From the IMG/VR virus record IMGVR_UViG_3300042363_000066, positions 1 through 30,678 of that record: a stretch of 30,678 nt of DNA; one strand, 5' to 3'. This DNA comes from a virus (taxonomy: Duplodnaviria; Caudoviricetes). The position numbers were made by a program, and so were the translations under genes. A model generated the notes under the pieces. That model was not told where the DNA came from. It saw only the letters and a program-made list of their open reading frames with translations, and did no database searches. Shown one piece after another: positions 383 to 22,671 of the stretch (its first letter is position 1; the number at the start of each line of letters is the position of its first letter).

Positions 383-384
383 CA

Positions 385-1157: not shown

Positions 1158-1281
1158 CCTAAGATTAGCAGCCGTAGTGTTTGAATTAAAACGCAAAGGC
1201 TACAAAGTACAAACGGAATTAATTAACGTTGGTACGAAAAAACAAAGTAAATTAGTAGCTAAATATTCAATTAAAAAATGA
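1075..1281 (+). CDS. Small winged helix-turn-helix DNA-binding protein
   Basis: ILNHLLSGKTLTPIQAL...RLAAVVFELKRKGYKV pattern typical of phage HTH proteins. Confidence 0.8.
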   Translation: MTQQQQILNHLLSGKTLTPIQALTKYNSLRLAAVVFELKRKGYKVQTELINVGTKKQSKLVAKYSIKK

Positions 1282-1508
1282 CACCAGAAGAAAAAGCAAT
1301 AGAATTATACAATAAAATGTATGAAACTGGATTTAAACCAAAAAGCGTTTTAATCAGAATAGAACAAGCCAAAGAATGTGCATTAATAGCAGCAAACGAG
1401 ATTTTAAAAGAAAATTTAGAAGAATTACCTGATGAGCCTGAAACTGTTGTTAGGTATATATATTGGCAAGAAGTTAAACAAAAAATAGAAACAATTAAAA
1501 ACAAATAA
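1278..1508 (+). CDS. Hypothetical phage protein
   Basis: ATGA overlap; MTPEEKAIEL...AKECALIA...YWQEVKQ. Confidence 0.75.
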   Translation: MTPEEKAIELYNKMYETGFKPKSVLIRIEQAKECALIAANEILKENLEELPDEPETVVRYIYWQEVKQKIETIKNK

Positions 1509-1510
1509 AA

Positions 1511-1702
1511 ATGGAACAAAAAAAATGGAGTGCAGGTGCTTGGAAAAAGACAACTGCTAAAGGAGAAGTAATTAACTTTACAATTAATGATGTAAAATAC
1601 TCGATGTGGGTAAATGCTTACAAGACAGAAGATAAGCAGCCAGATTATAAAATTTACATTAATGATTTCAAACCTAAAGAAGATACGGGATTGCCGTTTT
1701 AA
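1511..1702 (+). CDS. Small SSB-like / DUF736-like protein
   Basis: GAWKK...KQPDYKI core and acidic C-terminal LPF tail as in SSBs; next to ERF. Confidence 0.6.
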   Translation: MEQKKWSAGAWKKTTAKGEVINFTINDVKYSMWVNAYKTEDKQPDYKIYINDFKPKEDTGLPF

Positions 1703-1704
1703 TT

Positions 1705-2133
1705 ATGCTAACTAGAAATAAAGATGTTTCAATAAGACAACTAAAGGATTTATACTATGCGCAACGTAATACCCATATGCAGCTACACGAAATGATGTCG
1801 CAATTAGGGTTGTTAGGCATAGAAGATAATGAGCCTTTAGGTGCGGATATAGGTGCGAGAAGCATCGTCAAATTAGTAGAAGAAGTATTTGAATGCGATG
1901 TACTGAAAAAAGACAGGTCTTTAAAAACTACCTTCGGGCGCAAAGCTGCTGCCTATCTACTCAGGCGATATACTAAATTGAGCCTTAAAGAGATTAGCGC
2001 ATACAGTGGCACTAAAGACCATACAACCGCAATTCATAATATAAAACAAGCAAATAACCTAATTGATACGGAAGATTGGTTTAAAGACAAAATGAAAAGA
2101 ATTTGTCAAAAAATTGAAATTATACAAAATTAG
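1705..2133 (+). CDS. DnaA C-terminal (domain IV) HTH-containing protein
   Basis: RKAAAYLLRRYTKLSLKEISAYSGTKDHTTAIH resembles the DnaA domain IV signature (R..AMYL.R..T..SL..IG..FG.RDHTTV.H). Confidence 0.82.
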   Translation: MLTRNKDVSIRQLKDLYYAQRNTHMQLHEMMSQLGLLGIEDNEPLGADIGARSIVKLVEEVFECDVLKKDRSLKTTFGRKAAAYLLRRYTKLSLKEISAYSGTKDHTTAIHNIKQANNLIDTEDWFKDKMKRICQKIEIIQN

Positions 2134-2143
2134 TCTATATTTG
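2114..2143 (+). promoter_or_regulatory. Bacteroidota housekeeping-type promoter (-33/-7)
   Basis: TTG at 2114-2116, 19-nt spacer, TATATTTG at 2136-2143 (TAnnTTTG consensus). Confidence 0.75.
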
Positions 2144-2152
2144 CAGTATATA

Positions 2153-2243
2153 AGACACATAGACGAACTGCGAACCGCCTATGTGTTTAGTGGTTAAATA
2201 ATAATAACCCTGATAGTTCGCAGCTATCGGGGTTTATTTTTTT
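2153..2243 (+). promoter_or_regulatory. Structured 5' leader: two hairpins with complementary loops; second hairpin is terminator-like
   Basis: Stem 1 AGACACATAG/CTATGTGTTT with loop containing CTGCGAA; stem 2 AACCCTGATAG/CTATCGGGGTT with loop TTCGCAG, followed by TATTTTTTT and the ATG. Confidence 0.7.
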
Positions 2244-2948
2244 ATGGCAAAAGACCCAGCTTTTTTATTTTACCCCGGCGACTATGTTAGTGGCACAATG
2301 GGAATGACATTTGAAGAAAAAGGTGCATATATGGACCTGCTTATGCTTCAATTTAACCGAGGTCATATGAATCATCATATGATAGTTCATACGGTTGGTC
2401 ACTTGTGGGAACAAGTGAAATGCAAGTTTATACAAGATGACGAAGGTTTATGGTATAATGTCAGGCTTGACATTGAGAAGGATAAACGTAAAACCTTTAC
2501 AGAATCTAGGAGAAACAATATAAAATCAAAAAATAAAGCTACATTAGACACTACATATGAAACGCATATGAATAGTCATATGAAGCCTCATATGGAAAAT
2601 GTAAATATAAATATAAATAAAGATTTAAATAATAATAAAAGTAGATGTAGTTTTGAACAGGCTTTTGAGTATATGGCTACACGGATAGGAGTAGACCAAG
2701 CTAAGATTGAAGCCGAAAAATTCGTAAATTACTACGAAAGCAACGGATGGAAAGTCGGTAAAAACCCTATGAAAAGTTGGACACACGCCGTAAATAATTG
2801 GATAAATAACGCTAAACTATATGCAAAAGGAACTACAAATAATCAACGAAAACTTACAAAAGGAGAACAGTTTAACCTTGATGGATACAACCTCATTAAC
2901 GCTACTACCTATGGAGCAGGAGATTATGACCGCATTTTCGGGGGATAG
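2244..2948 (+). CDS. Phage replication initiator (DUF1376/YdaU-like N-terminus)
   Basis: MAKDPAFLFYPGDY..GT..MTFEEKGAYMDLL N-terminus; C-terminal AEKFVNYYESNGWKVGKNPMKSW; internal repeats. Confidence 0.78.
   Translation: MAKDPAFLFYPGDYVSGTMGMTFEEKGAYMDLLMLQFNRGHMNHHMIVHTVGHLWEQVKCKFIQDDEGLWYNVRLDIEKDKRKTFTESRRNNIKSKNKATLDTTYETHMNSHMKPHMENVNININKDLNNNKSRCSFEQAFEYMATRIGVDQAKIEAEKFVNYYESNGWKVGKNPMKSWTHAVNNWINNAKLYAKGTTNNQRKLTKGEQFNLDGYNLINATTYGAGDYDRIFGG
2554..2641. repeat. Iteron-like CATATG array plus AT-rich tract (putative replication origin)
   Basis: CATATG at 2554, 2565, 2577 and 2589 (11-12 bp spacing), then an almost pure A/T stretch; a second array lies at 2364-2405. Confidence 0.65.
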
Positions 2949-3582
2949 GGTTAGAAACGTAAACCAAATAATGTTGCATCAAAACCTTATTTACATAATG
3001 CAGCTAGTAGGTATTAACGTTATGCCAGACAAAGTTAAGTTAGCTTTATTAGAAGATTGGATTAGAAGCCAATACGGTAACTTCACAATAAACGAAATAA
3101 AAGTAGCGTTTAAGCAAATGGTAGCTAATGACTTCATCGACCACTACCAGAATTTTAGCCCTGCTTATTTTAGTCAGGTAATGGACAGATATAAGAAAAA
3201 AGCAAATGAAGTAAGAAAAATGATGCCACAAGAACGAGTAGAAGCAATCCCACACTTAACCGATTTAGAGATAATTGATTACAGTTACCAAGAATATAAG
3301 CTTCTGGAAAATAGAAATTTTGATAGGTTATTTAACCCATTATCAGTATTTACAAAGCTTAATAGTACAGGCATTAAGGTATGGACAAAAGAAGATGGCG
3401 CACTTGCTAAAAAGAAACTTATGGAGATTATTACATATAAGGCTAATAAAATGGACATCATAAGTGCAAAGCAGTACCGAGACGAATGGACTGAGCAATG
3501 GTTAAAAAACCAAGCTAGAGCAGTTGCAGTAGCTTTATTTTTCGATGAGCAAATAAAATTTGGTAAAGTTTCATTTTCTTAA
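2821..3582 (+). CDS. Hypothetical replication-associated protein (start uncertain: 2821, 2881 or 2911)
   Basis: Long ORF overlapping the end of the initiator gene; position typical of a helicase-loader partner. Confidence 0.6.
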   Translation: MQKELQIINENLQKENSLTLMDTTSLTLLPMEQEIMTAFSGDRVRNVNQIMLHQNLIYIMQLVGINVMPDKVKLALLEDWIRSQYGNFTINEIKVAFKQMVANDFIDHYQNFSPAYFSQVMDRYKKKANEVRKMMPQERVEAIPHLTDLEIIDYSYQEYKLLENRNFDRLFNPLSVFTKLNSTGIKVWTKEDGALAKKKLMEIITYKANKMDIISAKQYRDEWTEQWLKNQARAVAVALFFDEQIKFGKVSFS

Positions 3583-3592
3583 TATAGTTTTG
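3559..3592 (+). promoter_or_regulatory. Possible Bacteroidota-type promoter
   Basis: TTTG at 3559-3562, 22-nt spacer, TAGTTTTG at 3585-3592, just before ATG 3597. Confidence 0.4.
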
Positions 3593-3596
3593 TAAT

Positions 3597-3902
3597 ATGA
3601 CCGCAAACGAATTAACCAAAGAAGCTATCCAAAAGCTAAATAAAAACGGATGCTTTGTATGGCGTAATAACAATTTAGCGGTTAGAGGTCGCACCTTTAT
3701 AGGTTTAAAAGGAGTGCCAGATGTTGTAGGATTTCATACTCAAACAGGAGTAGCGGTATATTGCGAGACTAAAGCAATAGGAGACAAACTTAGCAGCTAC
3801 CAAATAGCATTTTTAAACTTAGCAAAAACGGCAAATTGTTTTTGTTACATAGCAACCGAAGACAACGGCAAACTAACCTTAAAAGAATATGAACAAGAAT
3901 AG
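3597..3902 (+). CDS. VRR-NUC domain nuclease (Holliday-junction resolvase-like)
   Basis: GVPDVVG...YCETKA...LSSYQIAFL PD-(D/E)xK pattern of the VRR-NUC family. Confidence 0.85.
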   Translation: MTANELTKEAIQKLNKNGCFVWRNNNLAVRGRTFIGLKGVPDVVGFHTQTGVAVYCETKAIGDKLSSYQIAFLNLAKTANCFCYIATEDNGKLTLKEYEQE

Positions 3903-4365
3903 CATCATATTAGAACTTTGGGAGAGCCGAGAACTAAAGGAAGCAATAGATAAAATGCAGCCTGAAGATTTACGAGAAGATTTAAGAAGCGAAATATTTA
4001 AGGTGCTATGCGAAATGGACGAGGAACGTTTAATTGATATGCGCACCCGTAATGTATTAAAGTTCTATTTAGTTCGCACTATGATTAATATGATGCAAAG
4101 TAACACTAGCCAATTTTATCGCACATACCGAAAGCCTTTAGAAGTAGAATTGATAGTACACGATAGAGACGAAGATTTACTTAATAAAGTAGAAGATGAG
4201 TTATCTAAGATGCATTGGTACAAAGCGGAACTTTTAAGAGTTTATGCAATTAAGCATAATTGCAACGCTAAAGAATTAAGCAGGGTTACAGGTATACCTT
4301 ATATGTCAATCCATAGGGAACTAAAACTAACTAAACGAGAACTTAAAAAACAATTACGCAAATGA
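3889..4365 (+). CDS. Phage sigma-factor-like transcriptional regulator (ECF-like)
   Basis: EDLRSEIF (region 2-like) and C-terminal HTH NAKELSRVTGIPYMSIHRELKLTK (region 4-like); 158 aa. Confidence 0.7.
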   Translation: MNKNSIILELWESRELKEAIDKMQPEDLREDLRSEIFKVLCEMDEERLIDMRTRNVLKFYLVRTMINMMQSNTSQFYRTYRKPLEVELIVHDRDEDLLNKVEDELSKMHWYKAELLRVYAIKHNCNAKELSRVTGIPYMSIHRELKLTKRELKKQLRK

Positions 4366-4496
4366 TGAACTACTATGCTAAATTAATTAGGTCTACTACT
4401 GATTATCGTAAAAAAAATATAATAAGAAGGATAGTTTCATATAATAAACTTAAGCTAATTCAATCTAAATATAAATTTAAAATTTGTAATTTATGA
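4362..4496 (+). CDS. Small basic hypothetical protein, 44 aa (not in ORF track)
   Basis: MMNYYAKLIRSTTDYRKKNII...; ATGA overlaps with both neighbours and exactly fills the gap. Confidence 0.5.
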   Translation: MMNYYAKLIRSTTDYRKKNIIRRIVSYNKLKLIQSKYKFKICNL

Positions 4497-4726
4497 TAAT
4501 TATAGCAGCAATATGCTTTTCGATATTCTTTATAGAGATACATCAGTTTCATAGAAAGTGGAATTTGAATTTTAAACCTTTTAATTGCACAAGTTGTATT
4601 TCAGCTTGGACAGGGTTAATATTATATTTACTACCTGAAGTGTGCACTAACATAGTAGCTTTTATGTTTGTTCCAGGAGTATTAGCACCAGTTTTAAGCA
4701 AAATAATGTGGAACTTATGGAAATAG
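4493..4726 (+). CDS. Small membrane protein with CxxC (DUF1360-like)
   Basis: Hydrophobic segments flanking KPFNCTSCISAW. Confidence 0.65.
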   Translation: MIIIAAICFSIFFIEIHQFHRKWNLNFKPFNCTSCISAWTGLILYLLPEVCTNIVAFMFVPGVLAPVLSKIMWNLWK

Positions 4727-4947
4727 AACACCGCAACTTTTTAGATGACCACGTTGGTAATTGGCATACAGTTCAAAATGGCTATGTGCGAAATATCGAC
4801 TTAGACATCTTAAAAATGTATGAACATATTTATCGCAAGTATATGAGTTCAGATTTTATCCTAACAGTTTGGTGCGGTAATTGCATTTTCGATATGATTA
4901 AAAGGCTTTACACTTGGTATGAGCAGCAACCTAAAAAAACAAAATGA
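4708..4947 (+). CDS. Hypothetical protein with CxxC
   Basis: WCGNCI motif; ATGA overlap with the glycosyltransferase. Confidence 0.7.
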   Translation: MELMEIEHRNFLDDHVGNWHTVQNGYVRNIDLDILKMYEHIYRKYMSSDFILTVWCGNCIFDMIKRLYTWYEQQPKKTK

Positions 4948-5939
4948 GAATACTTTGCATAACATCTGCAAATAGCGGAGTTGGATTACATAGAATAATG
5001 ATGCCAATAGTACACTTGCAAAAAGAATATGCACTTATTACAGATGTACTAAATGACGAACTACTAGAGCAGGGATGGGATATTGTGCTAATGAATAGAA
5101 TGCTAAACGAAATAGATGCAAAGAAAATGGATGCTTGGCGTACTAAGTACGGCTTTAAATTAGTAGTCGATAACGATGACCATTGGGAACTTAGCGAAAG
5201 CCATTTATTGTATTTAAGATATAAGCTCAATAATATACCTAAACAGATTACAGACTTCATACAGATAGCGGACCTTTGTACCTGTACGCACGAAAGATTA
5301 GCAGCAGAAATAAGTCCTTATAATAAAAACGTACACATATTACCCAACGCATTACCTTACGGGCAAGAGCAATTTATGGATAATAAGACCGAAGATTACA
5401 AGGTAAGATTATTCTGGTCAGGTAGCGGAACACACGAAAGAGATTTAGAGATACTAAGGCAGCCGTTTAAAAGATTGCAAGGTATGAATATAAGAACTGT
5501 AATAGCAGGTTATAATGACGGAGAGAAGCCTATATGGGATAAAATGATTGATAGCTTTACTTGTGGGCTAAAGCTTAACCCTACTATATACAACTATGCA
5601 AAGGTTACTGAATATATGGGTGCTTATACGGATAGCGATATTTCAATTATACCATTGGTGGACAATAAGTTTAATGCTATGAAGTCAAATCTAAAGGTAT
5701 TAGAAACCGCTACTAAAAAGAACCCTGCCATCGTTAGCCATGTCAATCCTTACCTTAATATGCCCGTGCATTACGTTAAAAGCCAAAAGGATTGGTATAA
5801 ACATATACGAGATTTAGTAAGCGATGCGGATATGAGAAAGGAAAGCGGTCAGAAACTATTTGACTTCTGCCAAAAGAAATATAACTTTGAGGAAATAAAT
5901 TTAGACAGAAAGTATATTTATAGTAAACTATGCCAGTAA
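4944..5939 (+). CDS. Glycosyltransferase (GT-B fold, GT4-like)
   Basis: SGVGLHRIMMP, VVDNDDHW, WSGSGTHERDL, DISIIPLVDNKFNAMKSNLKVLE. Confidence 0.85.
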   Translation: MRILCITSANSGVGLHRIMMPIVHLQKEYALITDVLNDELLEQGWDIVLMNRMLNEIDAKKMDAWRTKYGFKLVVDNDDHWELSESHLLYLRYKLNNIPKQITDFIQIADLCTCTHERLAAEISPYNKNVHILPNALPYGQEQFMDNKTEDYKVRLFWSGSGTHERDLEILRQPFKRLQGMNIRTVIAGYNDGEKPIWDKMIDSFTCGLKLNPTIYNYAKVTEYMGAYTDSDISIIPLVDNKFNAMKSNLKVLETATKKNPAIVSHVNPYLNMPVHYVKSQKDWYKHIRDLVSDADMRKESGQKLFDFCQKKYNFEEINLDRKYIYSKLCQ

Positions 5940-6352
5940 TTAAATGTTCTAACGGGAAATACAAAATCGGCTCAGGCGGTTGCATATACGAGACTGAGGA
6001 AAAAGCAATGCAAGTTTGGAAGGCTATCCTTGCAGGTGGTAAATTTGCTGAATCTTATAATGACTATCCAGAATCAGCTAGTAATAACGCAAAGAGAGCT
6101 TTGGAATGGGCTGATAAAAATGGGTGGGGTTCGTGTGGAGAAGCTACAGGTAAAGCGAGAGCAAACCAATTAGCTAATAAAGAGAAGATAACAAGAGACA
6201 CTATTGCCCGTATGGCTTCCTTTAAAAGACACCAACAACATAAAGACGTTCCTTATAGTGAAGGTTGTGGCGGTTTGATGTGGGATGCTTGGGGCGGAAC
6301 AAGTGGAATTGAGTGGGCTATTAATAAACTAAAAGAAATTGACAAAAAATAA
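5930..6352 (+). CDS. Conserved phage protein (domain usually seen in head-associated proteins)
   Basis: YNDYP..A.NNAKRAL, GKARANQLA, TIARMASF.RH, WDAWGG..G..WA. Confidence 0.65.
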   Translation: MPVIKCSNGKYKIGSGGCIYETEEKAMQVWKAILAGGKFAESYNDYPESASNNAKRALEWADKNGWGSCGEATGKARANQLANKEKITRDTIARMASFKRHQQHKDVPYSEGCGGLMWDAWGGTSGIEWAINKLKEIDKK

Positions 6353-6406
6353 TTTTCATAGTTAAATTTTTAATTATTAATCAACGGAAAATTTAATGGG
6401 GAAGCT

Positions 6407-6658
6407 ATGAAAAAACATACACAAATATATTTGCAGGGGATGGGTTATAAAACAACGGACTTTATCCCCTGTGAAGTGTGTGGATGCCAAGCAGTCGATG
6501 TGCATCATATAGAGGCGAGGGGAATGGGTGGTTCAAATGATAAGGACACGATTGAGAATTTAATGGGATTATGCAGGAAGTGTCATATAGATTTTGGAGA
6601 CAAAAAGCAATATAAAGAATTTTTAACCGACATACACAAACAAAATTACCGATGCTAA
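6407..6658 (+). CDS. HNH endonuclease
   Basis: CEVCG...DVHHI...NLMGLCRKCH. Confidence 0.9.
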   Translation: MKKHTQIYLQGMGYKTTDFIPCEVCGCQAVDVHHIEARGMGGSNDKDTIENLMGLCRKCHIDFGDKKQYKEFLTDIHKQNYRC

Positions 6659-7185
6659 TAACAGAACAGGAGTTTTTAGAGTACGAACTTAATGCAGGAA
6701 TAGGGATGCATAATGATTTTTTTAAAGACTTAGCAAGAAATACAGTTGCCCAGATTGAAAATTTGCCTGTTGTTTCGGTATTAGATTATGGAGCAGGAAC
6801 AGGAGTTTATAGCGATGCCTATTTTAAAGCAGGGTATCACATTGTAGCTTTTGAAATATTTAAGTCGCATCGTGAATATATGAAACAATATGTAGCTTAT
6901 GTTGAAATAGTAGATGAGCCTATTACTACAGACCTATTAAACTTTATAGAGACTGCCGAGCATATGACAGACAAAGAATTAGATTATTTATTTAGCAAAA
7001 TAGAGCCTCAATACATTTTATTTAGTAGCACATCACAAAGAGTTCCGGGGTTCGATGAATCTTGGGGTCATATAAATATTAAAGAGCAATCGGAATGGGA
7101 TAGCTATTTTAAAACAAAAGGCTATAGTAAAATAAAAGATTTATCACAACCTACAACTTGGAGCAAATTATATGGCAAAGATTAA
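6652..7185 (+). CDS. Class I SAM-dependent methyltransferase
   Basis: Motif I VLDYGAGTG, then ETAEHM and WGHINIK; no DPPY/NPPY or PC DNA-methyltransferase motif. Confidence 0.82.
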   Translation: MLITEQEFLEYELNAGIGMHNDFFKDLARNTVAQIENLPVVSVLDYGAGTGVYSDAYFKAGYHIVAFEIFKSHREYMKQYVAYVEIVDEPITTDLLNFIETAEHMTDKELDYLFSKIEPQYILFSSTSQRVPGFDESWGHINIKEQSEWDSYFKTKGYSKIKDLSQPTTWSKLYGKD

Positions 7186-7294: not shown

Positions 7295-7512
7295 GAAAGT
7301 TAAACGCAATCTGGTTACTGCTTACACATAAGGCATACTTTTTAGCAGTATGTAAGACAGGTATGGATGGCGATGATATGACCACAATAGGACATTACAC
7401 ATATGCAATGGCAGAAACCCTAATTAATAAACATATAGCAGACGTAGACACATACCTTGACCAAGAGGATGCGTTAGGAGAAGCACAAGACATTATAAAC
7501 GGCATACTATGA
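7291..7512 (+). CDS. Hypothetical protein
   Basis: ATGA-coupled at both ends. Confidence 0.7.
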   Translation: MRKLNAIWLLLTHKAYFLAVCKTGMDGDDMTTIGHYTYAMAETLINKHIADVDTYLDQEDALGEAQDIINGIL

Positions 7513-8096
7513 TACAAAACGTACAAATTAACCAAGTAAAAGCAAACCCAAATAATCCCAGAATAATTAAGGATGATAAGTTTGCAAAATTAGTAAAGTC
7601 TATTACGGACTTCCCCCAGATGCTAAACCTAAGACCTATAGTAGTTAATGACGATATGGTTGTACTTGGTGGCAATATGCGACTAAAGGCTTGTAAGGAA
7701 GCAGGACTTAAAGAGATACCAATCATAAAAGCTAGTGAACTAACCGAGCAGCAACAAAAGGAGTTTATAGTGAAAGACAATGTAGGATATGGAGAATGGG
7801 ATTGGGATGACCTAGCTAATAATTGGGATGCAGAAGAATTAACCGAGTGGGGATTAGATGTATGGACCAATAGCATAGGCGATGAACTGCTAACTATAGA
7901 TGACACTATCGATGAAAGCAAAGATAGTTCTCCTAAAATTACAGATGAAGGATATTCATTATTTGAAATAGTAATGTTACACGAAAATAAATTAGTACTT
8001 TTGGATGTAATAAACCAATTAAAAAGAGAATTTTTGTTTGAAAAAACAGAAGAAGCTATAATGGAATTAATTAGAATTTATCAAAATAAAAAATAA
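7509..8096 (+). CDS. ParB/Srx-like domain protein
   Basis: NPNNPRII...LRPIVVN..MVVLGGNMRLKAC...FIVKDNVGYGEWD. Confidence 0.88.
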   Translation: MIQNVQINQVKANPNNPRIIKDDKFAKLVKSITDFPQMLNLRPIVVNDDMVVLGGNMRLKACKEAGLKEIPIIKASELTEQQQKEFIVKDNVGYGEWDWDDLANNWDAEELTEWGLDVWTNSIGDELLTIDDTIDESKDSSPKITDEGYSLFEIVMLHENKLVLLDVINQLKREFLFEKTEEAIMELIRIYQNKK

Positions 8097-8100
8097 AACA

Positions 8101-8898
8101 ATGAGAAAAGAAAATAGCGCATTCATAAGTTTTGGAAAATCTGATAGCGGATTGATATTTGATGATTCAAATAATGAAACATATCCAATTAGATACTATA
8201 ATGTTATTAATGGAGTAGGTGCTGAGTTAAATAAAAACTATTCTTATTATGGATATGTATATAGCGGCAATGTAACTATTAATAGAAAATGGCTAAATTC
8301 TATAGAGTTAAATAGTCATATGTATTTTAGTTTGTCAGATGAATTTAATTTTTCAACTAATGTTATTGGCAGTTGTATTTTAATTGAGGTACTTAATAAA
8401 AAGTTTTACGAGACATCTAACTATAAAGCATATCCAACTTTTGGCGGTCCAATAGAAGATAAAGGAAGATTAAAATATATTGACGGATGTACTGATAGTT
8501 TATTAATATCTCCTGTAAAGAAAGGACAACCTTGTTTAAATCATTTGCATTTTCCACCTGAGATTAATCAAACACAACATACACACCCTACACATAGAAT
8601 TGGAATAGTTGCATCTGGTTACGGAGAATGTATTACACCATTTGGAAATTTACCTTTAGAGCCTGAGATGATATTTGTTATTAAAGCTTGGGATGGCGTA
8701 TTATATGATAAAGGATTAGATGGCGAACTATACGCAATAGGACAACACGCATTTCAAACATTTGATGCTCCTATGAATGTAATTGCTTTTCATCCAGATA
8801 GCGACTTCGGACCAGAAGATGAGTTTCATCCAATGATTAACCGTACAATAGTAAATGGCGTTTCAGCTAATAAGCTAAAAGACATAATGACAAAGTAA
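8101..8898 (+). CDS. Cupin-fold metal-binding protein
   Basis: LHFPPEINQTQHTHPTHRIGIVASGYG (HxH motif 1) and QHAFQT...VIAFHP (motif 2). Confidence 0.75.
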   Translation: MRKENSAFISFGKSDSGLIFDDSNNETYPIRYYNVINGVGAELNKNYSYYGYVYSGNVTINRKWLNSIELNSHMYFSLSDEFNFSTNVIGSCILIEVLNKKFYETSNYKAYPTFGGPIEDKGRLKYIDGCTDSLLISPVKKGQPCLNHLHFPPEINQTQHTHPTHRIGIVASGYGECITPFGNLPLEPEMIFVIKAWDGVLYDKGLDGELYAIGQHAFQTFDAPMNVIAFHPDSDFGPEDEFHPMINRTIVNGVSANKLKDIMTK

Positions 8899-10091
8899 TG
8901 AGTAAGATTAGAAAAAAGGATTACCAATCGAGCAATGTATTAGAAGCTGCATTAGATAGGATGCGATACCTGTATGATAGTTTTGATAATGTAGAAATAG
9001 GTTTTTCAGGCGGAAAGGATAGTACTGTTGTTTTGAATTTAGCCATAAAGGTTGCTCGTGAAAAAAATAAACTTCCTGTAATAGCAAATTTTTATGACGA
9101 AGAAGCGATACACCCGACAACTATTGAATATGTACAAAGGGTAAGCGAACATCCAGACGTTAAACTTAATTGGTTCTGTTTAGAGTTTAAACATCGTAAT
9201 GCTTCATCAAACGAAGAACCTTATTGGTATACTTGGGATAAAGACAAAAAAGATTTATGGGTTCGTGATATGCCAGAAAATTGTATAAAGGAACATCCTA
9301 AGTTTGTAAAGGGTTTATCTTTCCAACAATTTACATCATATAGAGCTGATAAATCTAAAGGCACAACTGTAGATGTAACAGGAGTAAGGACACAAGAAAG
9401 CCTTAGAAGATTTCAGGCAGTATCACAAAAAGTAAACGATAACTATATTTCAAGATACGGGCATTTTTCTATTGCGCATCCAATATACGATTGGAGCAGT
9501 CAAGACGTATGGAAATTGGTACACGAGTGGGATATAGATTATAATAAAACATATGATATATTTAACAAAACAGAACTGAGTAACAAGTTTCTTACTCAAA
9601 GAGTTTGCCCACCATTTGGAGAAGAACCATTAAGAGGGTTATGGATATATGCAGAATGCTTCCCGGACCTATGGCATAAAATGCTTAATAGAGTAGAGGG
9701 CGTTGCTACTGCTTGGCGATATGCTAATACAGAATTATACGGAGTAGGCGGAATACAAAAGCCAGACGAATTAAGTTGGAAGGAATACCTTTCCTATATC
9801 GTAGATACTTATTCAGGTAAAGAAAGAAACTTTGTAATAGAAAATATTAACAGATATATTACATTGCATAAAGACAGGGCTAAAGATAACATAGCAGACA
9901 TAGAAGCCAATCCATTAACCGGCATTTCTTATAGGTGGCTTTGCAAAATTGCACACAAAGGAGATTTTAAAGGAAGGCAGTTGCCAGATAATGAAAGGGC
10001 TGCGGCTATGAAACGATTAGATATAAATCAAGATGATGCAGTATATTTATACGGTAACGAAAAATACAAAAAGCAATACTTTAAAAAATGA
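8898..10091 (+). CDS. PAPS-reductase-family PP-loop protein (IbrA/YbdN/DUF3440-like)
   Basis: FSGGKDS PP-loop, GVRTQESLRR, PIYDWSSQDVW, QRVCPPFG. Confidence 0.88.
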   Translation: MSKIRKKDYQSSNVLEAALDRMRYLYDSFDNVEIGFSGGKDSTVVLNLAIKVAREKNKLPVIANFYDEEAIHPTTIEYVQRVSEHPDVKLNWFCLEFKHRNASSNEEPYWYTWDKDKKDLWVRDMPENCIKEHPKFVKGLSFQQFTSYRADKSKGTTVDVTGVRTQESLRRFQAVSQKVNDNYISRYGHFSIAHPIYDWSSQDVWKLVHEWDIDYNKTYDIFNKTELSNKFLTQRVCPPFGEEPLRGLWIYAECFPDLWHKMLNRVEGVATAWRYANTELYGVGGIQKPDELSWKEYLSYIVDTYSGKERNFVIENINRYITLHKDRAKDNIADIEANPLTGISYRWLCKIAHKGDFKGRQLPDNERAAAMKRLDINQDDAVYLYGNEKYKKQYFKK

Positions 10092-10660
10092 TTGACAAAA
10101 ATCAATATCCATCTGTTACCCGCATATTAGCGAAAACAAAACCGCAGTCAGATATTGATATGCTTGAAAAATGGAGAATTAAAGTAGGTCCTATAGAAGC
10201 AGACAGGATAAGTAATGCCGCCTTAGAGCGTGGTAAGATGTACGATACCTTCATCGAGGATTATGTAAATGGCATAGACATACCGCATAAAAAACTGCAA
10301 GAGTATTTAAAACAATTTCAAATAGTATCAAGAGAAGAAAACGTATATAGTAGCCAATATCTATATAAAGGTAGATATGATTGTATATTTGCTAAAAATG
10401 GAATATTAGTACTAAATGATTTTAAAGGCTCAGGAAAAAAGAAAACAAAGAAATGGCTAAAAGATTACCCTTTACAGATAGCCGCATATATAAAAGCATT
10501 AGAAGAAGTTGGGGTAATTATTAATTGGGGTATGATAACCGTGATACTCGATGATGAAATACAGACCTTTGTTTATGACCATTGCGAAATAGAAACTTAT
10601 TTTATAGAATTTTTAAAAAGACTAAAACAGTATAATGATGAAACAAATGCCAATATCTAA
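10088..10660 (+). CDS. PD-(D/E)xK exonuclease (phage exonuclease/Cas4-like)
   Basis: YPSVTRIL, RG..Y..IE, YKGRYDCI, NDFKGS, LQIAAY. Confidence 0.82.
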   Translation: MIDKNQYPSVTRILAKTKPQSDIDMLEKWRIKVGPIEADRISNAALERGKMYDTFIEDYVNGIDIPHKKLQEYLKQFQIVSREENVYSSQYLYKGRYDCIFAKNGILVLNDFKGSGKKKTKKWLKDYPLQIAAYIKALEEVGVIINWGMITVILDDEIQTFVYDHCEIETYFIEFLKRLKQYNDETNANI

Positions 10661-11174
10661 CGTACAATGGTTAGACAGAAACGAACTATCCCCAAACCTA
10701 TATAATCCAAATAAGGTTGCACCGCCAGAAATGGCACTACTGAAACAAAGTATATTACAAGACGGATGGCTATTCCCTATTATTGTATTCGATAAGACAA
10801 TACACATAGAAAACCTAACAGATAATAAAGACCTAAATAAGTACACAATCATAGATGGCTTTCATAGGTATACGATAAGCGGAGACAAAGACATATACAA
10901 ACTGAGCGATGGCAAAGTGCCTGTAGTTATCCTAAACCCTAGCAACCCATTAGCTACAACCGTTAGGATGAATAGAGCAAAAGGTACACACGCCGTATTA
11001 AAGATGGGCGACATCGTAAAGAACCAAATAGATAACGGAAAGCAGCTAAGTGAGATAATGAGCGAGTTCGGTATGGAGAAAGAAGAAGTGGTTAGATTAG
11101 CAAATAGGATGGGAATACACAAGACTGATATTATTGTAGATACCGATTGGAGCAATTCTTGGTTACCAAAATAA
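10635..11174 (+). CDS. ParB-like nuclease domain protein (IbrB/YbdM-like)
   Basis: PNLYNPNKVAPPEMALLKQSILQDGW..PI, IIDGFHR, TVRMNRAKGTH. Confidence 0.88.
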   Translation: MMKQMPISNVQWLDRNELSPNLYNPNKVAPPEMALLKQSILQDGWLFPIIVFDKTIHIENLTDNKDLNKYTIIDGFHRYTISGDKDIYKLSDGKVPVVILNPSNPLATTVRMNRAKGTHAVLKMGDIVKNQIDNGKQLSEIMSEFGMEKEEVVRLANRMGIHKTDIIVDTDWSNSWLPK

Positions 11175-11192
11175 CAGCATAATAACAGCACA

Positions 11193-11591
11193 ATGGCAAG
11201 TAAAGATATAATAGCACATCAATTTAATAAAGGTCAGTCTGGCAATCCAAATGGCAGACCTCGTAAATATGTAAGCCTATTAAAAGAACAGGGCTATAAA
11301 GTATCGGAAATAAATGACACCATACAAGCTATGATGGCTATGGAGTTCGAGGAATTAAAATCTGTATGGGATAACCCGAAGGCAACGATACTAGAAAAGA
11401 CTATTGCGGCTGCTATGCGTAAGAGCTTAGAGAAGGGCAGCCTTTATAGTTTAGAAACTTTGCTTACTCGTGTATATGGAAAGCCAAAGGAGACAGTAGA
11501 CACAAATAATAAAACTGAGCTTACAGGCAAAATACAAGTCGAGGTAATTACAAGCGGAGTGCCTTTAGCAAATAGAGAAACAGATGTTTAG
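11193..11591 (+). CDS. terS: Terminase small subunit
   Basis: FNKGQSGNPNGRP N-terminal motif, LLTRVYGKPKE; directly upstream of terL. Confidence 0.8.
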   Translation: MASKDIIAHQFNKGQSGNPNGRPRKYVSLLKEQGYKVSEINDTIQAMMAMEFEELKSVWDNPKATILEKTIAAAMRKSLEKGSLYSLETLLTRVYGKPKETVDTNNKTELTGKIQVEVITSGVPLANRETDV

Positions 11592-12732
11592 AACTACAGA
11601 CGTATTCCTAAGCAATAGGAATGCTGAGACAGACATAATAGTTAATCAAGGCGGAACGAGTAGCGGTAAAACATACTCGATATTACAAAACCTATTCCTT
11701 CACGCTATAGAAGATGACAGGTGTATTATCACTGTTGCAGGTCAGGATATACCCAATTTAAAGGTAGGTCCGATAAGAGATGCTCATAATATAGTAGAAC
11801 AGACGGAAGGGCTATCTGATTACATTTTAGAGTATAATAAATCGGATAGGGTTTTTAAGTTTGTCAATGGCTCGATTATAGAATTTAAAAGCTATGACGA
11901 TTCACAAGATGCCAAACAGGGTAAAAGGGATTATCTATTTTTAAACGAGGCTAATGGTGTTCCTAAGATAATTTGGGATGAACTATATATTCGTACAAAG
12001 AAGCGGAGTTATATTGACTATAACCCGAACAATGAATTTTGGGTACATACCGAGCTTATAGGTAAGCCAAACGTTACGCTGATAATATCGGACCATAGGC
12101 ATAATACTTTCCTTGACCAAAAGATACACGATAAGATTGAGGCAATCGAAGACCCAGAACTTTACAAGGTTTATGCCCGTGGGCTTACGGGTAAAATCGA
12201 GGGGGTAATCTTTAGGGATTATAATGTAGTTCCCGGCATCGACCCAGATGCCAAGCTCATAGGCTACGGCTTAGACTTCGGCTTTACGAATGACCCGACT
12301 GCCTTGGTGGCACTATATAGCTACTCAGGGGAATTGGTAGTAGATGAGCTGATTTACCAGACAGGGCTTTTAAATGTCAATATTAGCGATTTAATGCGTG
12401 ATTTAGGCGTTAATGGGCGTATTGTGGGGGATAGTGCCGAACCCAAGTCAATCGCTGAATTAGGGGCATATGGTTGGCAAATAGAGGGTGCTAAGAAAGG
12501 ACCGGATAGCGTAAGGCAGTCAATAAACAATTTAAAGAGGTATAAGCTCAATGTAACGCAAAGGTCTGTCAATTTAAAAAAAGAGCTAAATAGCTATAAA
12601 TGGAAGCTAAATAAGGATGGGAAGCTAGATAATGACCCTGTAGACTACCTAAACCACGCCATTGATGCCCTACGATATGCATCCCTAAATATCCTCGAAA
12701 ACCCAACTTCTGGCAGGTATGCCTTCCTTTAG
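11584..12732 (+). CDS. terL: Terminase large subunit (PBSX/SPP1-like)
   Basis: Walker A GGTSSGKT, Walker B YLFLNEA, DYNP, RNase H-like GLDFGF, DSAEPKSI, NHAIDALRY. Confidence 0.96.
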   Translation: MFRTTDVFLSNRNAETDIIVNQGGTSSGKTYSILQNLFLHAIEDDRCIITVAGQDIPNLKVGPIRDAHNIVEQTEGLSDYILEYNKSDRVFKFVNGSIIEFKSYDDSQDAKQGKRDYLFLNEANGVPKIIWDELYIRTKKRSYIDYNPNNEFWVHTELIGKPNVTLIISDHRHNTFLDQKIHDKIEAIEDPELYKVYARGLTGKIEGVIFRDYNVVPGIDPDAKLIGYGLDFGFTNDPTALVALYSYSGELVVDELIYQTGLLNVNISDLMRDLGVNGRIVGDSAEPKSIAELGAYGWQIEGAKKGPDSVRQSINNLKRYKLNVTQRSVNLKKELNSYKWKLNKDGKLDNDPVDYLNHAIDALRYASLNILENPTSGRYAFL

Positions 12733-12740
12733 GGGTACTT

Positions 12741-12774
12741 TTTACCGTTCATCACTGATATTTACCGTTCATCA
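12741..12774. repeat. Perfect 14-bp direct repeat TTTACCGTTCATCA, two copies, 20-bp period
   Basis: Copies at 12741-12754 and 12761-12774. Confidence 0.9.
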
Positions 12775-12804
12775 TAAACTTTAAAAAAAAGTTTGCTCAT
12801 TTGA

Positions 12805-12833
12805 TTGTGGAATGTTAAAAGGTTGTACATTTG
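12805..12833 (+). promoter_or_regulatory. Bacteroidota-type (early) promoter
   Basis: TTG at 12805-12807, 18-nt spacer, TACATTTG at 12826-12833; A-tract upstream. Confidence 0.72.
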
Positions 12834-12863
12834 ATATATCAAACAACCACAAAAACAAAACAC

Positions 12864-13439
12864 ATGAAAAATCTAATTGAAAAGTACGAAAATTTAGGCT
12901 ACATTTTAACATTAAAAAATGAGCCTATGATTATAGGTACTTGCGTAAGAAAAGTTAGCAGGGCTAGAATACCTAACCCATTATTTAACTACAGATTTAG
13001 AAGCATCGACAGAATGATTGAGTTCTGTACTGAATGGATTAACAAGGTAGAAATTAACGTAAATGCTGAAAACGAAAGGAAAGCTAAGAAAAAAGAGGCT
13101 CAAAAAAATATGCAGCATAGTTACAAGGTGGGCGATATAATTTACAATAGTTGGGGATATGACCAAACTAACATAGATTTTTACCAGATAGTAGAAGTTA
13201 AGGCTAAGTCGATTATGATTAATAGAATAGGCAAATGCTATGTTGAGGGAACTGAGGGCTTTATGTCATCAAACGTAAAACCAATCCAAGACGATTTTAT
13301 CGGAGAGCCAATTTTGAAAAAAGTAAATATTTTAGTAAATTACAATGGCAATATCCAATACTACATCAAAGCAGAACACGGATGTTTTGTTGAGTATCAT
13401 AATGAAAAATCTGGCGTATACTCTAGTTGGTACGCTTAA
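12864..13439 (+). CDS. Hypothetical phage protein, 191 aa (ATG 12864 preferred over TTG 12831)
   Basis: A/C-rich leader before the ATG; the TTG lies inside the promoter element; contains SWGYDQTNIDFYQIV. Confidence 0.8.
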   Translation: MKNLIEKYENLGYILTLKNEPMIIGTCVRKVSRARIPNPLFNYRFRSIDRMIEFCTEWINKVEINVNAENERKAKKKEAQKNMQHSYKVGDIIYNSWGYDQTNIDFYQIVEVKAKSIMINRIGKCYVEGTEGFMSSNVKPIQDDFIGEPILKKVNILVNYNGNIQYYIKAEHGCFVEYHNEKSGVYSSWYA

Positions 13440-13447
13440 AATAAAAT

Positions 13448-13486
13448 AGGGGTGCGGCTATTCAACGCACATTTAACTCACTAAAA
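13448..13486 (+). repeat. Intergenic hairpin motif, copy 1
   Basis: AGGG-GTGCG-gctattcaa-CGCAC-ATTTAACTCACTAAA. Confidence 0.8.
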
Positions 13487-13493
13487 CATTTTT

Positions 13494-13673
13494 ATGAAAA
13501 ACTTAATTTACAAATCTTCTTATTTATCAGCACCAAACTCAAATAACGTTAGACATTGGGTAATAGATTATTACAATGGTAGATTTACAATGAGTATTCC
13601 ATTTTATATGATGCCATTTAATATTAAAAAAGAAATGGTAAAACAAGGCTTTAATGCAAATAGAAACAAATAA
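13494..13673 (+). CDS. Hypothetical protein, 59 aa (not in ORF track)
   Basis: MKNLIYKSSYLSAPNSNNVRHWVIDYY...; sits exactly between the two motif copies. Confidence 0.7.
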   Translation: MKNLIYKSSYLSAPNSNNVRHWVIDYYNGRFTMSIPFYMMPFNIKKEMVKQGFNANRNK

Positions 13674-13680
13674 CATAAGC

Positions 13681-13719
13681 AGGGGTGCGACTGAATAACG
13701 CACAATTTAACCAACTAAA
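13681..13719 (+). repeat. Intergenic hairpin motif, copy 2
   Basis: AGGG-GTGCG-actgaataa-CGCAC-AATTTAACCAACTAAA. Confidence 0.8.
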
Positions 13720-13728
13720 CTAAACACA

Positions 13729-13815
13729 ATGAAAAAAGAAACCGCACAACTTTTAGCCGTATTTTTAGTAGCTTGTTACCTTATAGGACAATTACAAGAC
13801 ATATACTCAAAATGA
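13729..13815 (+). CDS. Small hydrophobic peptide, 28 aa
   Basis: MKKETAQLLAVFLVACYLIGQLQDIYSK; follows motif copy 2; ATGA-coupled to the next ORF. Confidence 0.55.
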   Translation: MKKETAQLLAVFLVACYLIGQLQDIYSK

Positions 13816-13937
13816 TTTACGCTATTTGCCTTCTGCTAATTGCAATAGGTTTTGTAATAGCAGCATTAACCGATTACACAATAAAACACTATGACCCAAA
13901 GCAACAAAGAATACATAGACAAATACTACGCAAGTGA
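13812..13937 (+). CDS. Small membrane peptide, 41 aa
   Basis: MIYAICLLLIAIGFVIAALTDY...; N-terminal transmembrane segment. Confidence 0.5.
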   Translation: MIYAICLLLIAIGFVIAALTDYTIKHYDPKQQRIHRQILRK

Positions 13938-14103
13938 GCCGATTAGTATAATGATGTCTAACATAGATGCTACCTATCTTGAAATACTAACATACTGCAA
14001 CGAGCAGGGTTATGAACCTGCAAAGCGTAAATTAAGGAGACCAGAACATAAGTCAAAAATCGGCTTTTTTGACATAGATAATTACAAACCAGAAACAATA
14101 TGA
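13891..14103 (+). CDS. Hypothetical protein
   Basis: ORF coupled to the next gene. Confidence 0.65.
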   Translation: MTQSNKEYIDKYYASEPISIMMSNIDATYLEILTYCNEQGYEPAKRKLRRPEHKSKIGFFDIDNYKPETI

Positions 14104-14285
14104 AAAACAAACCTATGAAAACAGCAATGCAAGAATTAAAAGATTGGGCTAACCAATACAAAGGTCAAATGATTTCAGCAGACCAAGTAGTATTACAGGC
14201 ACATAATTTACTTAAAAAAGAAAAGGAGCAATGTATTTTACTTGCAGAAACATTTTTAAATAAATTAATAGAAGAAGATATTTAA
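14100..14285 (+). CDS. Hypothetical protein
   Basis: MKTAMQEL...KEKEQ pattern; ATGA overlap. Confidence 0.65.
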   Translation: MKNKPMKTAMQELKDWANQYKGQMISADQVVLQAHNLLKKEKEQCILLAETFLNKLIEEDI

Positions 14286-14299
14286 CCAAAACTAAACAA

Positions 14300-14764
14300 A
14301 TGGAATTACAACAAATCTTCGAAACAACAAAAGAGCAACGCATCGAGTTTACGCACCAAGTAATTGAAAGATTAAATGCAGGGGAGTTAGACCCTTTAAA
14401 AACCCATCTACAAGTCAAAGCCTTAGAGGATATGCTTGAAACCCTAAAAACAAATAAGGACTATAAAGATGCGGTATTACAAGCATCCGTATTAAATGGC
14501 AAGGACTTCGAGTATATGAGTGCTAAGTTTAACATTAGAGAAGTAGGCGTTAAGTATGACTTTAGCAAATGCGAAAGTCCTGCATATAATGAGATTATGG
14601 ATGACTATAACGATGCTACTAAACGCAAAAAGGATATGGAAGATTTCCTTAAAAAAGTTCCGCATCAAGGACTTGATATTATTAATGGGGTTACGGGCGA
14701 GGTTACAAGAGTTTACCCACCTGCTAAGAGTAGCACAACAAGTGTAGCCGTATCATTAAAGTAA
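14300..14764 (+). CDS. Hypothetical phage protein
   Basis: Good A-rich leader; 154-aa ORF with YDFSKC motif. Confidence 0.78.
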   Translation: MELQQIFETTKEQRIEFTHQVIERLNAGELDPLKTHLQVKALEDMLETLKTNKDYKDAVLQASVLNGKDFEYMSAKFNIREVGVKYDFSKCESPAYNEIMDDYNDATKRKKDMEDFLKKVPHQGLDIINGVTGEVTRVYPPAKSSTTSVAVSLK

Positions 14765-14861
14765 TTAAAATATTGTACTTCTTTGCAATTTGCTTACCTT
14801 TGGCAGCGTTATGCTACATAGGTGGGCATCTTGCTTATGAGATAATGTTAAAACTAAGAAA

Positions 14862-15619
14862 ATGACTTGGAACGAATTAACAGTTTGGCAGTACCAACAA
14901 ATTTACCCGATAGTTACTAAGCCTGAGAAGGATTGGACCACATTAGATGTGGAAAGTAAGCTTGTAGGTATAATCTTTAACCTTACCGACACTCAGGTAG
15001 ATAGCCTAAGCGTAAAGCAGTTTAACAACCTAAAGGTAACACTTGACTTTTTAGACGATAAGATAGAAGGAAAGCCTGTTAAGTATACCGAAGTAAACGG
15101 CAAACGATATAGATTTATATATGATGTGCAACAAATCAAAGCAGCCAGATACATAGAGACAAAAGTATTTAGCACCGATTTAGTTGGTAACCTACACAAG
15201 TTAGCAGCCTCAATGGTTATGCCTCAACGCAAAACTTGGTGGGGCAAATGGGTAGATGACAAGTACGATGCTGCCAAGCATAGCCAATATGCCGAGGACT
15301 TACAAGGGGCAAAGTTTATGCACGTTTATCAATCGGTTGTTTTTTTTTATCAAGTATACAGAAATTGGATAGAAGTTTCTCAGGGTTATTTGGTCAAGGA
15401 GATGATGAATCAGGGAATGAGTATGGAGTTGGCACAAAAGGGGGTTCAAATTTTATGCGACACTTTGGATGGCAGTATTGCGCCAAATCTGTTGCCGACC
15501 ACGAAAATATCACAGTTAATGAAAGCTATGAATTAACCACATTACACTTTTTAAATACGCTATCCTATCTAAAGGCTAAAGCCGATTACGATAAGGAGCA
15601 ACATAGGAAACTTAAATAA
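14862..15619 (+). CDS. Putative tail assembly chaperone: 224 aa in frame 0 (to 15536) plus a -1 frameshift product of about 252 aa (to 15619)
   Basis: G-T9 slippery run at 15339-15348; the -1 frame is open from 15284 to 15619 with no upstream ATG. Confidence 0.65.
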
Positions 15620-15633
15620 GACCCCCAGACGAT

Positions 15634-15666
15634 ACCCTGCCATTTTTGGTGGGGTTAGTTATTTTT
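15634..15666 (+). terminator. Intrinsic terminator-like hairpin
   Basis: ACCCTGCCA-tttt-TGGTGGGGT followed by TAGTTATTTTT. Confidence 0.5.
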
Positions 15667-15689
15667 AGACCTTCCTTATATTTATTAGC

Positions 15690-16391
15690 GTGAGAATAGA
15701 TAAAGCACAAATACAGGCATTAAGAGACGGCTTCTTACAAAGAAAAGGAAGTACTAACTATACAGGCTTACCTATATTAGAAGAGACACTTGCGTTATAT
15801 GGTCAAGCGTTTAACACTGCAATAGGGGCAAACCTTCAAAAGACGGGGTCTATAAGTTCTGGTAGATTAGCAGAACCTGACTTTCCTATCATTACTAAAT
15901 TTGGTAATAGTTATATTCTAAGTGTTGGTTATGCAAAAGGCAGCGAGGCATCTAAATACTATGACTATGTCAATAAAGGGGTGCAAGGTGTAGGAGGTAA
16001 GAACGCAAAGCCTAAAAAGAACACAGGCGAATACTCATACAAGACACCTTACGCAAATAAAAAGATGGCTACAAGCATCTTATTATGGCTTCGTAAAAGT
16101 GCTAACTCATCACGGAATGAAGATGCCCCAATAACTAAGACACAACGTAAAAGAAAAAAACTTGCTAACATAGTATCTAAAACAGATAGCTTAAAAACAT
16201 TAGCTTATAAAATATCAAGTGCAATTAAGAGAGATGGTTTACGAGCAACGTTCTTTTTTGACAAAGCAATTAATGATGTATTTAATAAAGAATTTATTGA
16301 AAGCATAGCAATCGCAGTAGGTGGCGATGTCCAAATTCAAATAAAGCAAACAATTAACGAAGTTAAGAATGGCAATAACAATAACAAGTAG
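15690..16391 (+). CDS. Putative neck / tail-completion protein (HK97 gp10-like)
   Basis: SGRLA..., YYDYVNKGV.G, I..AIKRDGLRATFFF; basic; lies in the morphogenesis block. Confidence 0.55.
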   Translation: MRIDKAQIQALRDGFLQRKGSTNYTGLPILEETLALYGQAFNTAIGANLQKTGSISSGRLAEPDFPIITKFGNSYILSVGYAKGSEASKYYDYVNKGVQGVGGKNAKPKKNTGEYSYKTPYANKKMATSILLWLRKSANSSRNEDAPITKTQRKRKKLANIVSKTDSLKTLAYKISSAIKRDGLRATFFFDKAINDVFNKEFIESIAIAVGGDVQIQIKQTINEVKNGNNNNK

Positions 16392-21418: not shown

Positions 21419-21453
21419 ATGATAACAATTTAAAACACTTAATATTTAAGATT

Positions 21454-22038: not shown

Positions 22039-22074
22039 TAAACAAAATCTTTTATTAATATTTAAACAAAAAGA

Positions 22075-22659: not shown

Positions 22660-22671
22660 AAATAAAATAAA

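Follow-up and report, generated by a model that had tools for sequence, protein, structure and literature searches.

The virus record IMGVR_UViG_3300042363_000066 (Duplodnaviria; Caudoviricetes), whose whole length of 30,678 bases is the window analyzed here, encodes directly ahead of its terminase genes a cassette comprising a ParB-type protein (ParB1), a bicupin of an unnamed family, and an IbrA/IbrB (YbdN/YbdM)-type pair. We propose that this cassette performs a post-replicative DNA modification by adenylation and displacement, using a small, non-phosphorothioate donor. The case for this reading is positional and structural, and we rate its probability at roughly 0.5.

Slot and cassette ahead of the terminase

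A search with the N-terminal domain of ParB1 returned 597 viral matches, the best 80 of which were kept. In these loci the domain is 76-100% identical, and other modifying enzymes come after it, as fusions or as separate genes. After omission of L005, a copy of the cassette, 79 loci (L169-L247) were classified, with occupant labels taken from representatives and with redundant counts, many loci being near-identical phages: N6/N4 methyltransferase (51), Mom (12), C5 methyltransferase (3), TET-associated glycosyltransferase (TAGT; 2), TAGT with TET (2), a DpdA-like protein with QueC (1), ABC-GNAT (4), and the bicupin-IbrAB cassette (1), while two slots were cut off and one was empty. DNA-modifying enzyme families (methyltransferase, Mom, TET/glycosyltransferase, DpdA-like/QueC) occupy 71 of the 79 slots. 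The DNA homology of the window to sister loci ends at ~7858-7862 and restarts at ~11231-11244 (blastn, eight loci); the right boundary was found in seven of the eight, the remaining one (L208) giving no match on that side.

Judged from these comparisons, the cassette is interchangeable cargo in a slot mostly filled by DNA-modifying enzyme families. Since the slot otherwise mostly hosts such families, DNA is the likely target of the cassette, and its modification is likely in view of the position that it shares with the enzymes of sister phages. The slot contents are the principal, though indirect, evidence on this point. A preliminary description of this DNA had suggested a DNA modification system; this role is supported by the slot contents of sister phages, whereas the phosphorothioation proposed alongside it fares poorly, as discussed below. 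The N-domain of ParB1 is the fixed anchor of the slot, and the protein is a probable loader or activator; ParB1 as a cassette-specific gene was rejected, because this domain is shared across slot loci with other cargo. According to published work, T-dioxygenases of phages are activated on double-stranded DNA by ParB proteins, which are often encoded close to terminases (PMC13229309); phages also commonly encode fusions of ParB and a methyltransferase (PMC12704722).

The ABC-GNAT occupants are ABC-ATPase–GNAT fusions (phrog_11143; L197:4662-5738, also L215, L226, L244, and L287), candidate DNA-modifying enzymes in their own right. Extension to TerL-anchored loci added pairs of an FkbM-type methyltransferase and a TET/JBP dioxygenase as further occupants (L260:5079-5771 and the next gene; also L267, L272, L277, L284, and L307), and several slots in that set are empty.

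The suggested coupling of the modification to packaging found little or no support: the cultured IbrAB phages Gaia, Mwe-JY13, and PhiR5_2 are without an annotated terminase in the stretches fetched. Such coupling is not needed to account for the pre-terminase position, for which late expression would suffice. The mom gene of phage Mu is a late-expressed parallel.

A second survey was anchored on the bicupin and covered the best 80 of 217 viral loci, which represent 32 lineages when grouped at 75% bicupin identity; counts take loci that show a gene or have room for it. ParB1 was found in 77/77 and IbrA in 78/78 loci, IbrB in 66/67 (the sole miss, L087, does show IbrB on separate inspection), and TerL in 63/64, confirming the anticipated co-occurrence of cupin, DUF3440, and ParB beside the terminase in other genomes. 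Other genes are less constant. The nuclease encoded between IbrA and IbrB in the window is present in 15/67 loci, all of them in one of 28 lineages, a second short PP-loop protein in 24/78 cassettes, and a class II glutaminase, alongside the second PP-loop gene, in 10/78. In 13 of 66 loci an unnamed protein of 165 amino acids (F14; e.g., L070:7970-8467) takes the place of the nuclease; it has no Pfam or PHROG match and its Atlas model is poor. A methyltransferase fusion in L368 (L368:3435-4232) contains a related domain. As nuclease, glutaminase, second PP-loop protein, and F14 are all optional, the conserved unit, on this gene content, is the four genes ParB1–bicupin–IbrA–IbrB ahead of terS/terL.

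Consequently, the earlier notion of a five-gene module stands in part. The five open reading frames (ORFs) are present on the + strand exactly where they had been placed, abutting or overlapping and followed by terS and terL (Table 1). A fixed five-gene unit was rejected, since the nuclease is clade-restricted rather than a core part and the N-domain of ParB1 belongs to the slot. The ratio of nonsynonymous to synonymous substitution rates (dN/dS) is <0.3 for every gene with a computable value in comparison to seven relatives and 0.01-0.07 against the closest relative, with dS near saturation in several comparisons. All five genes are real, and they show purifying selection.

In cultured phages, IbrA matches 223 records and IbrB 227, with identical organism counts in the top ten except for the entry "Bacteriophage". 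The two genes travel together there with varied partners and with a terminase not always near. The bicupin has no match in any cultured phage record.

The cassette enzymes and the proposed supply of a donor

IbrA combines PF01507 (3'-phosphoadenosine-5'-phosphosulfate (PAPS) reductase family; 53.7 bits, cut-off 22.5) and PF11922 (DUF3440; 54.3 bits, cut-off 25) in one protein and matches phrog_2302 (E 6e-87), with the SGGKDS PP-loop intact at residues 37-42. IbrB retains DGFHR, matches phrog_2159 (E 6e-57), and shares 35% identity (E 4e-35) with the annotated IbrB of phage PhiR5_2; DG(F/E)HR, RxNR, and a C-terminal WxP are its invariants. In terms of domains, motif, and the paired ParB-type protein, the cassette belongs to the IbrA/IbrB (YbdN/YbdM) family, as had been recognized before, and not to DndC or CysH. 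A search of PDB sequences gave no match for IbrA and nothing significant for IbrB. We predict that IbrB is the dedicated partner of IbrA and binds nucleoside triphosphates. The nuclease matches phrog_298 (E 2e-35) and human MGME1 (E 1e-7) and, from its distribution and substitution pattern, is an optional, clade-restricted insert under purifying selection.

The nearest folds to the IbrA model are flavin adenine dinucleotide (FAD) synthase (Z 15.2), CysD (14.4), and adenosine 5'-phosphosulfate (APS) reductase (14.3), these three fold groups scoring Z 13-15 overall; TilS/MesJ (Z 10-12), NcsA and LarE (10-11), and GMP synthase (10) follow. Across 68 distinct IbrA sequences from IbrB-anchored loci, S37, G39-K-D-S42, D67, E69, E167, R171, D198, R235, and R265, residues of catalytic type, are invariant (68/68) and G38 is kept in 64. 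IbrA is predicted to be an adenylating enzyme.

The second gene product, of 265 amino acids, has no match in Pfam or PHROG. Its AlphaFold model (predicted local distance difference test (pLDDT) 94.6) is a bicupin, best superposed on DR1152 (Z 18.8, root-mean-square deviation 3.2 over 209 residues; also matched by Foldseek) and ureidoglycine aminohydrolase (Z 18.4), at ~10% identity to the best folds. Its profile found no match among PDB sequences, and the viral fold library held no full-length match. His160, His162, and His216 in the C-terminal barrel are present in 67/67 viral and 72-73/73 bacterial bicupins, and Arg166, Cys130, Cys145, and Cys177 in 67/67 viral and at least 71/73 bacterial ones; Arg166 occupies the usual Glu position. 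We predict the bicupin to be a donor-making metalloenzyme.

Bacterial relatives of the bicupin were inspected in 80 loci. An SGG[KILV]DS motif is encoded on the bicupin strand in 43 of these and on the other strand in two, and the PP-loop partner is asparagine-synthase-like in 28. The Met-Cys-Gly start of a glutaminase was found in none of the 35 asparagine-synthase-like proteins at those loci, apart from one internal match. Such pairs of a bicupin and an asparagine-synthase-like protein without the N-terminal glutaminase Cys (L111:7869-11972, L145:2301-7804, and 26 other bacterial loci) often come with a membrane TOPRIM-like protein and occur in Planctomycetota, Methylococcales, and others. 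Bicupins are also found in clusters with a CmlA-type diiron hydroxylase and AMP-binding or nonribosomal peptide synthetase (NRPS) genes (L163:4948-15517, which also has two ATP-grasp genes, and L144:2561-11593). In L100:3288-8756 and 12 other cyanobacterial loci the bicupin is divergent from a conserved protein of ~1490 amino acids, presumably a NACHT-type NTPase.

In a third survey, anchored on IbrB (best 80 of 594 loci), IbrA was recovered in 71 loci, with ParB1-type genes present in 51 and bicupin genes in 29. Other neighbours include GNATs, small-molecule methyltransferases, a short-chain dehydrogenase, a 2-oxoglutarate oxygenase, SNF2 (in five loci), and transport genes. In a quick version of the IbrA tree, the 29 bicupin-linked rows fall into one group of 35 (SH-like approximate likelihood ratio test 92), in which six rows are without a bicupin. 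Four of these six carry a transport gene at the bicupin position, namely an SSF symporter (L373, L397) or a TctC receptor (L356, L358); the remaining two rows are L369, where an unannotated membrane protein is encoded upstream, and L380, with a different cupin downstream. L366 (bicupin) pairs with L373 (symporter): both have the same flanking genes, at 42-71% identity (IbrA 71%, IbrB 63%) and 66-71% DNA identity. Of the 60 IbrB-anchored loci that contain IbrA and extend at least 1.5 kb upstream, 26 have a bicupin but no transporter, 11 a transporter but no bicupin, 23 neither, and none both (Fisher p 0.0014, a value overstated because kin share genes). Likewise, no such transporter was found in the 80 bicupin-anchored loci.

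As bicupin and transporter were never found together in the sampled loci, the bicupin may make a donor that other cassettes import. The simplest reading of this gene swap suggests that the bicupin makes a small nucleophile or donor for the PP-loop enzymes, a task that import can also fulfil; the earlier proposal of a donor-supplying cupin gains support from it. Several hints point to nitrogen: the glutaminase in some cassettes, symporters nearest to DUR3 urea and choline transporters, a fusion of ectoine synthase and ParB in phage Gaia, and the GNAT partners. A distant IbrA clade (L383, L384, L405, L410, L401, and L408) has an SSF symporter or an NMT1/SsuA-type binding protein, and most of its loci also encode a second PP-loop protein together with ParB1, IbrA, and IbrB.

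Proposed mechanism and alternatives

From the above we infer a reaction sequence of four steps. First, the metal-dependent bicupin would act on a host metabolite to produce a small, polar donor that is probably an amine; in some sister cassettes, import would take the place of this synthesis. IbrA would then use ATP to adenylate an oxyanion acceptor on the DNA or the donor, in the manner of the related FAD synthase and CysD, and displacement of the adenylate would yield the conjugate. IbrB would act as the partner of IbrA, while ParB1 would load the enzymes onto double-stranded DNA or activate them there, as for the phage T-dioxygenases. Finally, through late expression alongside terS/terL, the genomes of the progeny would be marked, probably as a protection from restriction. 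An accessory role in processing ends or flaps would fall to the nuclease. No DNA polymerase or nucleotide-synthesis family was matched among the 30 ORFs scanned (Pfam, PHROG), so a change to base or backbone would likely be introduced at the level of the polymer.

A more specific version would make IbrAB the source of a second natural kind of DNA backbone mark: the phosphate would be adenylated and an amine, bicupin-made or symporter-imported, would displace AMP, leaving a phosphoramidate-type linkage, and the exchange of donor genes would create a family of marks. We regard this version as a long shot. If true, thousands of viral "PAPS reductase" genes would serve genome protection and not sulfur metabolism.

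Several observations weigh against the proposed DNA modification. In E. coli, the chromosomal ybdNM genes share their regulation with citrate lyase genes, in keeping with a metabolic role (PMC9068703). The slot also holds the ABC-GNAT genes, which have no assigned function, and is empty in some phages. The glutaminase is absent from the window. Six of the 11 transporter loci belong to the distant IbrA clade without bicupin, and one further locus (L369) counts by its unannotated membrane protein, which matched only itself. The transporters also imply differing solutes (urea/choline-like, carboxylate, and sulfonate/taurine-like).

In a first alternative, tentative and in our view rather unlikely, DNA is not the covalent target and the product is a free small molecule or nucleotide conjugate, or a modified host protein or tRNA, serving counter-defence or gene regulation. 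It would account for the small-molecule enzymes and transporters among the partners, for the bacterial bicupins beside asparagine-synthase-like and NRPS genes, and for nearest IbrA folds that adenylate small molecules. It also fits the link of ybdNM to citrate regulation and the annotation of IbrAB as co-activators of prophage gene expression, the genes in question presumably being eib. The 71 of 79 loci in which the same ParB1 anchor accompanies DNA-modifying families, together with the two ParB-type proteins of the cassette, speak instead for DNA as the target.

Sulfur chemistry is a doubtful second alternative, either as DndC/SspD-like phosphorothioation via host IscS or with a sulfur-bearing donor (cysteine sulfinate-/taurine-like) from a bicupin resembling three-His thiol dioxygenases. 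IbrA shares the fold clade of DndC and has weak PADLOC matches to DndC (E 2e-10) and BrxP (E 1e-9). The DndC model TIGR03183, in contrast, scores 29.6 bits against a cut-off of 290.4 and aligns to residues 153-217 only. DndC uses four Cys residues to ligate a 4Fe-4S cluster (PMC12193691), and membership of IbrA in this family was rejected on score and for want of a conserved Cys set of this kind. In the 68 IbrA sequences the best Cys column reaches 45/68, C237 is kept in 24 and C349, the last Cys, in 25, and three sequences are Cys-free, so that the DndC-type Cys cluster is, as already remarked in the preliminary description, not evident. Within 55 bicupin-anchored IbrA sequences (after removal of one misgrouped ORF and two cultured-phage proteins), C94, C237, and C254 are kept in 45-46; for C237 the count is 45, the other 10 sequences having Gly or Ala at this position. 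These columns, the three near-invariant Cys of the bicupin, the placement of all three Cys-free IbrA outside the bicupin clade in the quick tree, and one cassette type with a sulfonate/taurine-type (SsuA/TauA-like) binding protein speak against discarding sulfur altogether.

A cysteine desulfurase gene (Aminotran_5) was not found in the phage genome, estimated to be 91% complete; host IscS can substitute, and host desulfurases can stand in for DndA (PMC10853773). No DndD/DndE or SspB/SspC/PglZ was detected among seven proteins (PADLOC) or 30 proteins (Pfam), a part of the ORFs of a genome of which ~9% is missing. Given the lack of a family-wide conserved Cys and the existence of Cys-free homologues, classical phosphorothioation by the cassette is unlikely. 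The phosphorothioate chemistry proposed earlier is thus hardly supported. In combination with the modeled fold, the Cys pattern of IbrA favours an enzyme that adenylates a phosphate- or sulfate-like acceptor and uses no cysteine carrier.

An aid to DNA processing or packaging, in which IbrA would adenylate DNA ends or nicks during maturation together with the nuclease (or SNF2 in other phages), appears very improbable. The MGME1-like nuclease, the adjoining terminase, and the SNF2 partners are consistent with it; the restriction of the nuclease to one lineage, close sisters that share the terS flank and are devoid of the whole cassette, and the unexplained transporters and glutaminases argue against it. 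A true PAPS reductase acting as auxiliary metabolic gene in sulfate assimilation, a reading in print for phage PAPS reductases (PMC6145125) and backed by the PF01507 match and the PHROG label, can be dismissed as barely credible, since the CysH model NF002537 scores 32.4 against a cut-off of 154, the catalytic C-terminal Cys needed in CysH (PMC8175902) is not conserved, Cys-free homologues exist, and IbrA travels with IbrB; CysH identity was rejected accordingly.

Genome context and comparison with known systems

The main genes of the window are all encoded on the + strand, and their cassette part is listed in Table 1. DNA nearly identical to the record was found in 19 listed sequencing runs, mostly lake and freshwater metagenomes, with no RNA run among them. 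No tRNA genes were found in the window, and a promoter/terminator scan of it stayed at or below chance. Upstream of the slot lie a glycosyltransferase gene (phrog_7162) at 4944-5939 and a Methyltransf_23 gene at 6652-7185, the latter optional in relatives. Just inside the left breakpoint, the G+C content falls to 24-29% at 8000-8599 (surroundings ~35%), covering the ParB1 tail and the first bicupin barrel. Downstream, small and tail-like genes (11584-26649) lie between terL and the head genes, and the portal comes after the capsid gene. Among close relatives, terL types of 21-27% identity are exchanged while the cassette is kept.

Table 1. Positions of the cassette, its flanking terminase genes, and the loci of the bicupin/transporter swap
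Sequence	Feature	Position	Strand	Basis
Window	ParB1; ParB/Srx N-domain (amino acids 1 to ~118) and cassette-specific tail	7509..8096	+	PF02195, phrog_498/940/620
Window	Swapped cargo segment	7860..11235	none	blastn vs 8 sister loci
Window	Bicupin, unnamed family, 265 amino acids	8101..8898	+	AlphaFold model, fold searches, Atlas, conservation; 2797 homologues
Window	IbrA/YbdN-family PP-loop enzyme (PAPS_reduct + DUF3440)	8898..10091	+	PF01507, PF11922, phrog_2302
Window	PD-(D/E)xK exonuclease, MGME1-like	10088..10660	+	phrog_298, human MGME1 match
Window	IbrB/YbdM-family ParB/Srx protein	10635..11174	+	phrog_2159, DGFHR
Window	Terminase small subunit (DUF5681), right slot boundary	11193..11591	+	Pfam
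Window	Terminase large subunit	11584..12732	+	profile matches incl. Pfam, PHROG
L366	Swap locus with bicupin	742-3998		
L373	Swap locus with transport gene	2719-6501		
L397	Swap locus with transport gene	264-3971		
L356	Swap locus with transport gene	2137-5265		
L358	Swap locus with transport gene	3337-6507		

IbrA/IbrB genes are present in >200 sequenced phage records and an estimated 4,600 IMG/VR stretches (IbrB scan), and are often read as sulfur-assimilation genes. Other articles view IbrAB as regulators of prophages or as potential virulence factors (PMC4541368, PMC8813620, PMC5874904). Our literature search, with supplements and most subscription papers outside its scope, yielded no biochemical function for IbrA/IbrB, YbdN/YbdM, or DUF3440 and no bicupin cassette. 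YbdM, YbdN, IbrB, and PAPS do not occur in the main text of a survey of ParB folds (PMC12704722), nor do IbrA and DUF3440 in the available text of PMC10853773. Serratia phage eta was rejected as a lead to modified DNA, having no modified base according to the available part of PMC3918226. If the DNA adduct exists, its chemistry would be new among DNA modifications, and a frequent annotation of viral metabolic genes would need correction. The slot swap and the bicupin/transporter swap together make the symporter solute, as the putative bicupin product, a concrete lead to the donor.

The closest known systems are IbrA/IbrB of E. coli and phages and YbdN/YbdM of K-12 (PHROG 2302 and 2159), which have the same domain content, PP-loop, and paired ParB protein, the window IbrA being 30% identical to the annotated IbrA of phage PhiR5_2. 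Unlike these, the window cassette adds the unnamed bicupin, a second ParB, the nuclease, and the pre-terminase slot. Cluster B3 mycobacteriophages (Pipefish) and Bacillus phage 035JT001 carry a left-end ParB–IbrA–IbrB–terminase block, also with two ParB-type genes around IbrA, adjoining the terminase in B3, with small genes of no assigned function or a methyltransferase in place of bicupin and nuclease. The ParB-dependent T-dioxygenase (5mYOX) systems (PMC13229309) likewise combine a ParB N-domain with an enzyme, often near terminases, and TET and glycosyltransferase pairs sit in the same slot of relatives; in contrast to them, the cassette has no TET/JBP domain (no PF12851 match), its catalytic cargo being the PP-loop enzyme and the bicupin. 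DndC, SspD, and BrxP share the PAPS-reductase-fold PP-loop enzyme, and Dnd also has a ParB-family gene (DndB), but the window cassette differs from them in having no family-wide Fe-S Cys, no score near the DndC cut-off, and no desulfurase gene. FAD synthase and CysD are the closest solved folds for IbrA residues 8 to ~250, at 18-20% identity, from which IbrA is set apart by its additional DUF3440 and helical C-terminal part.

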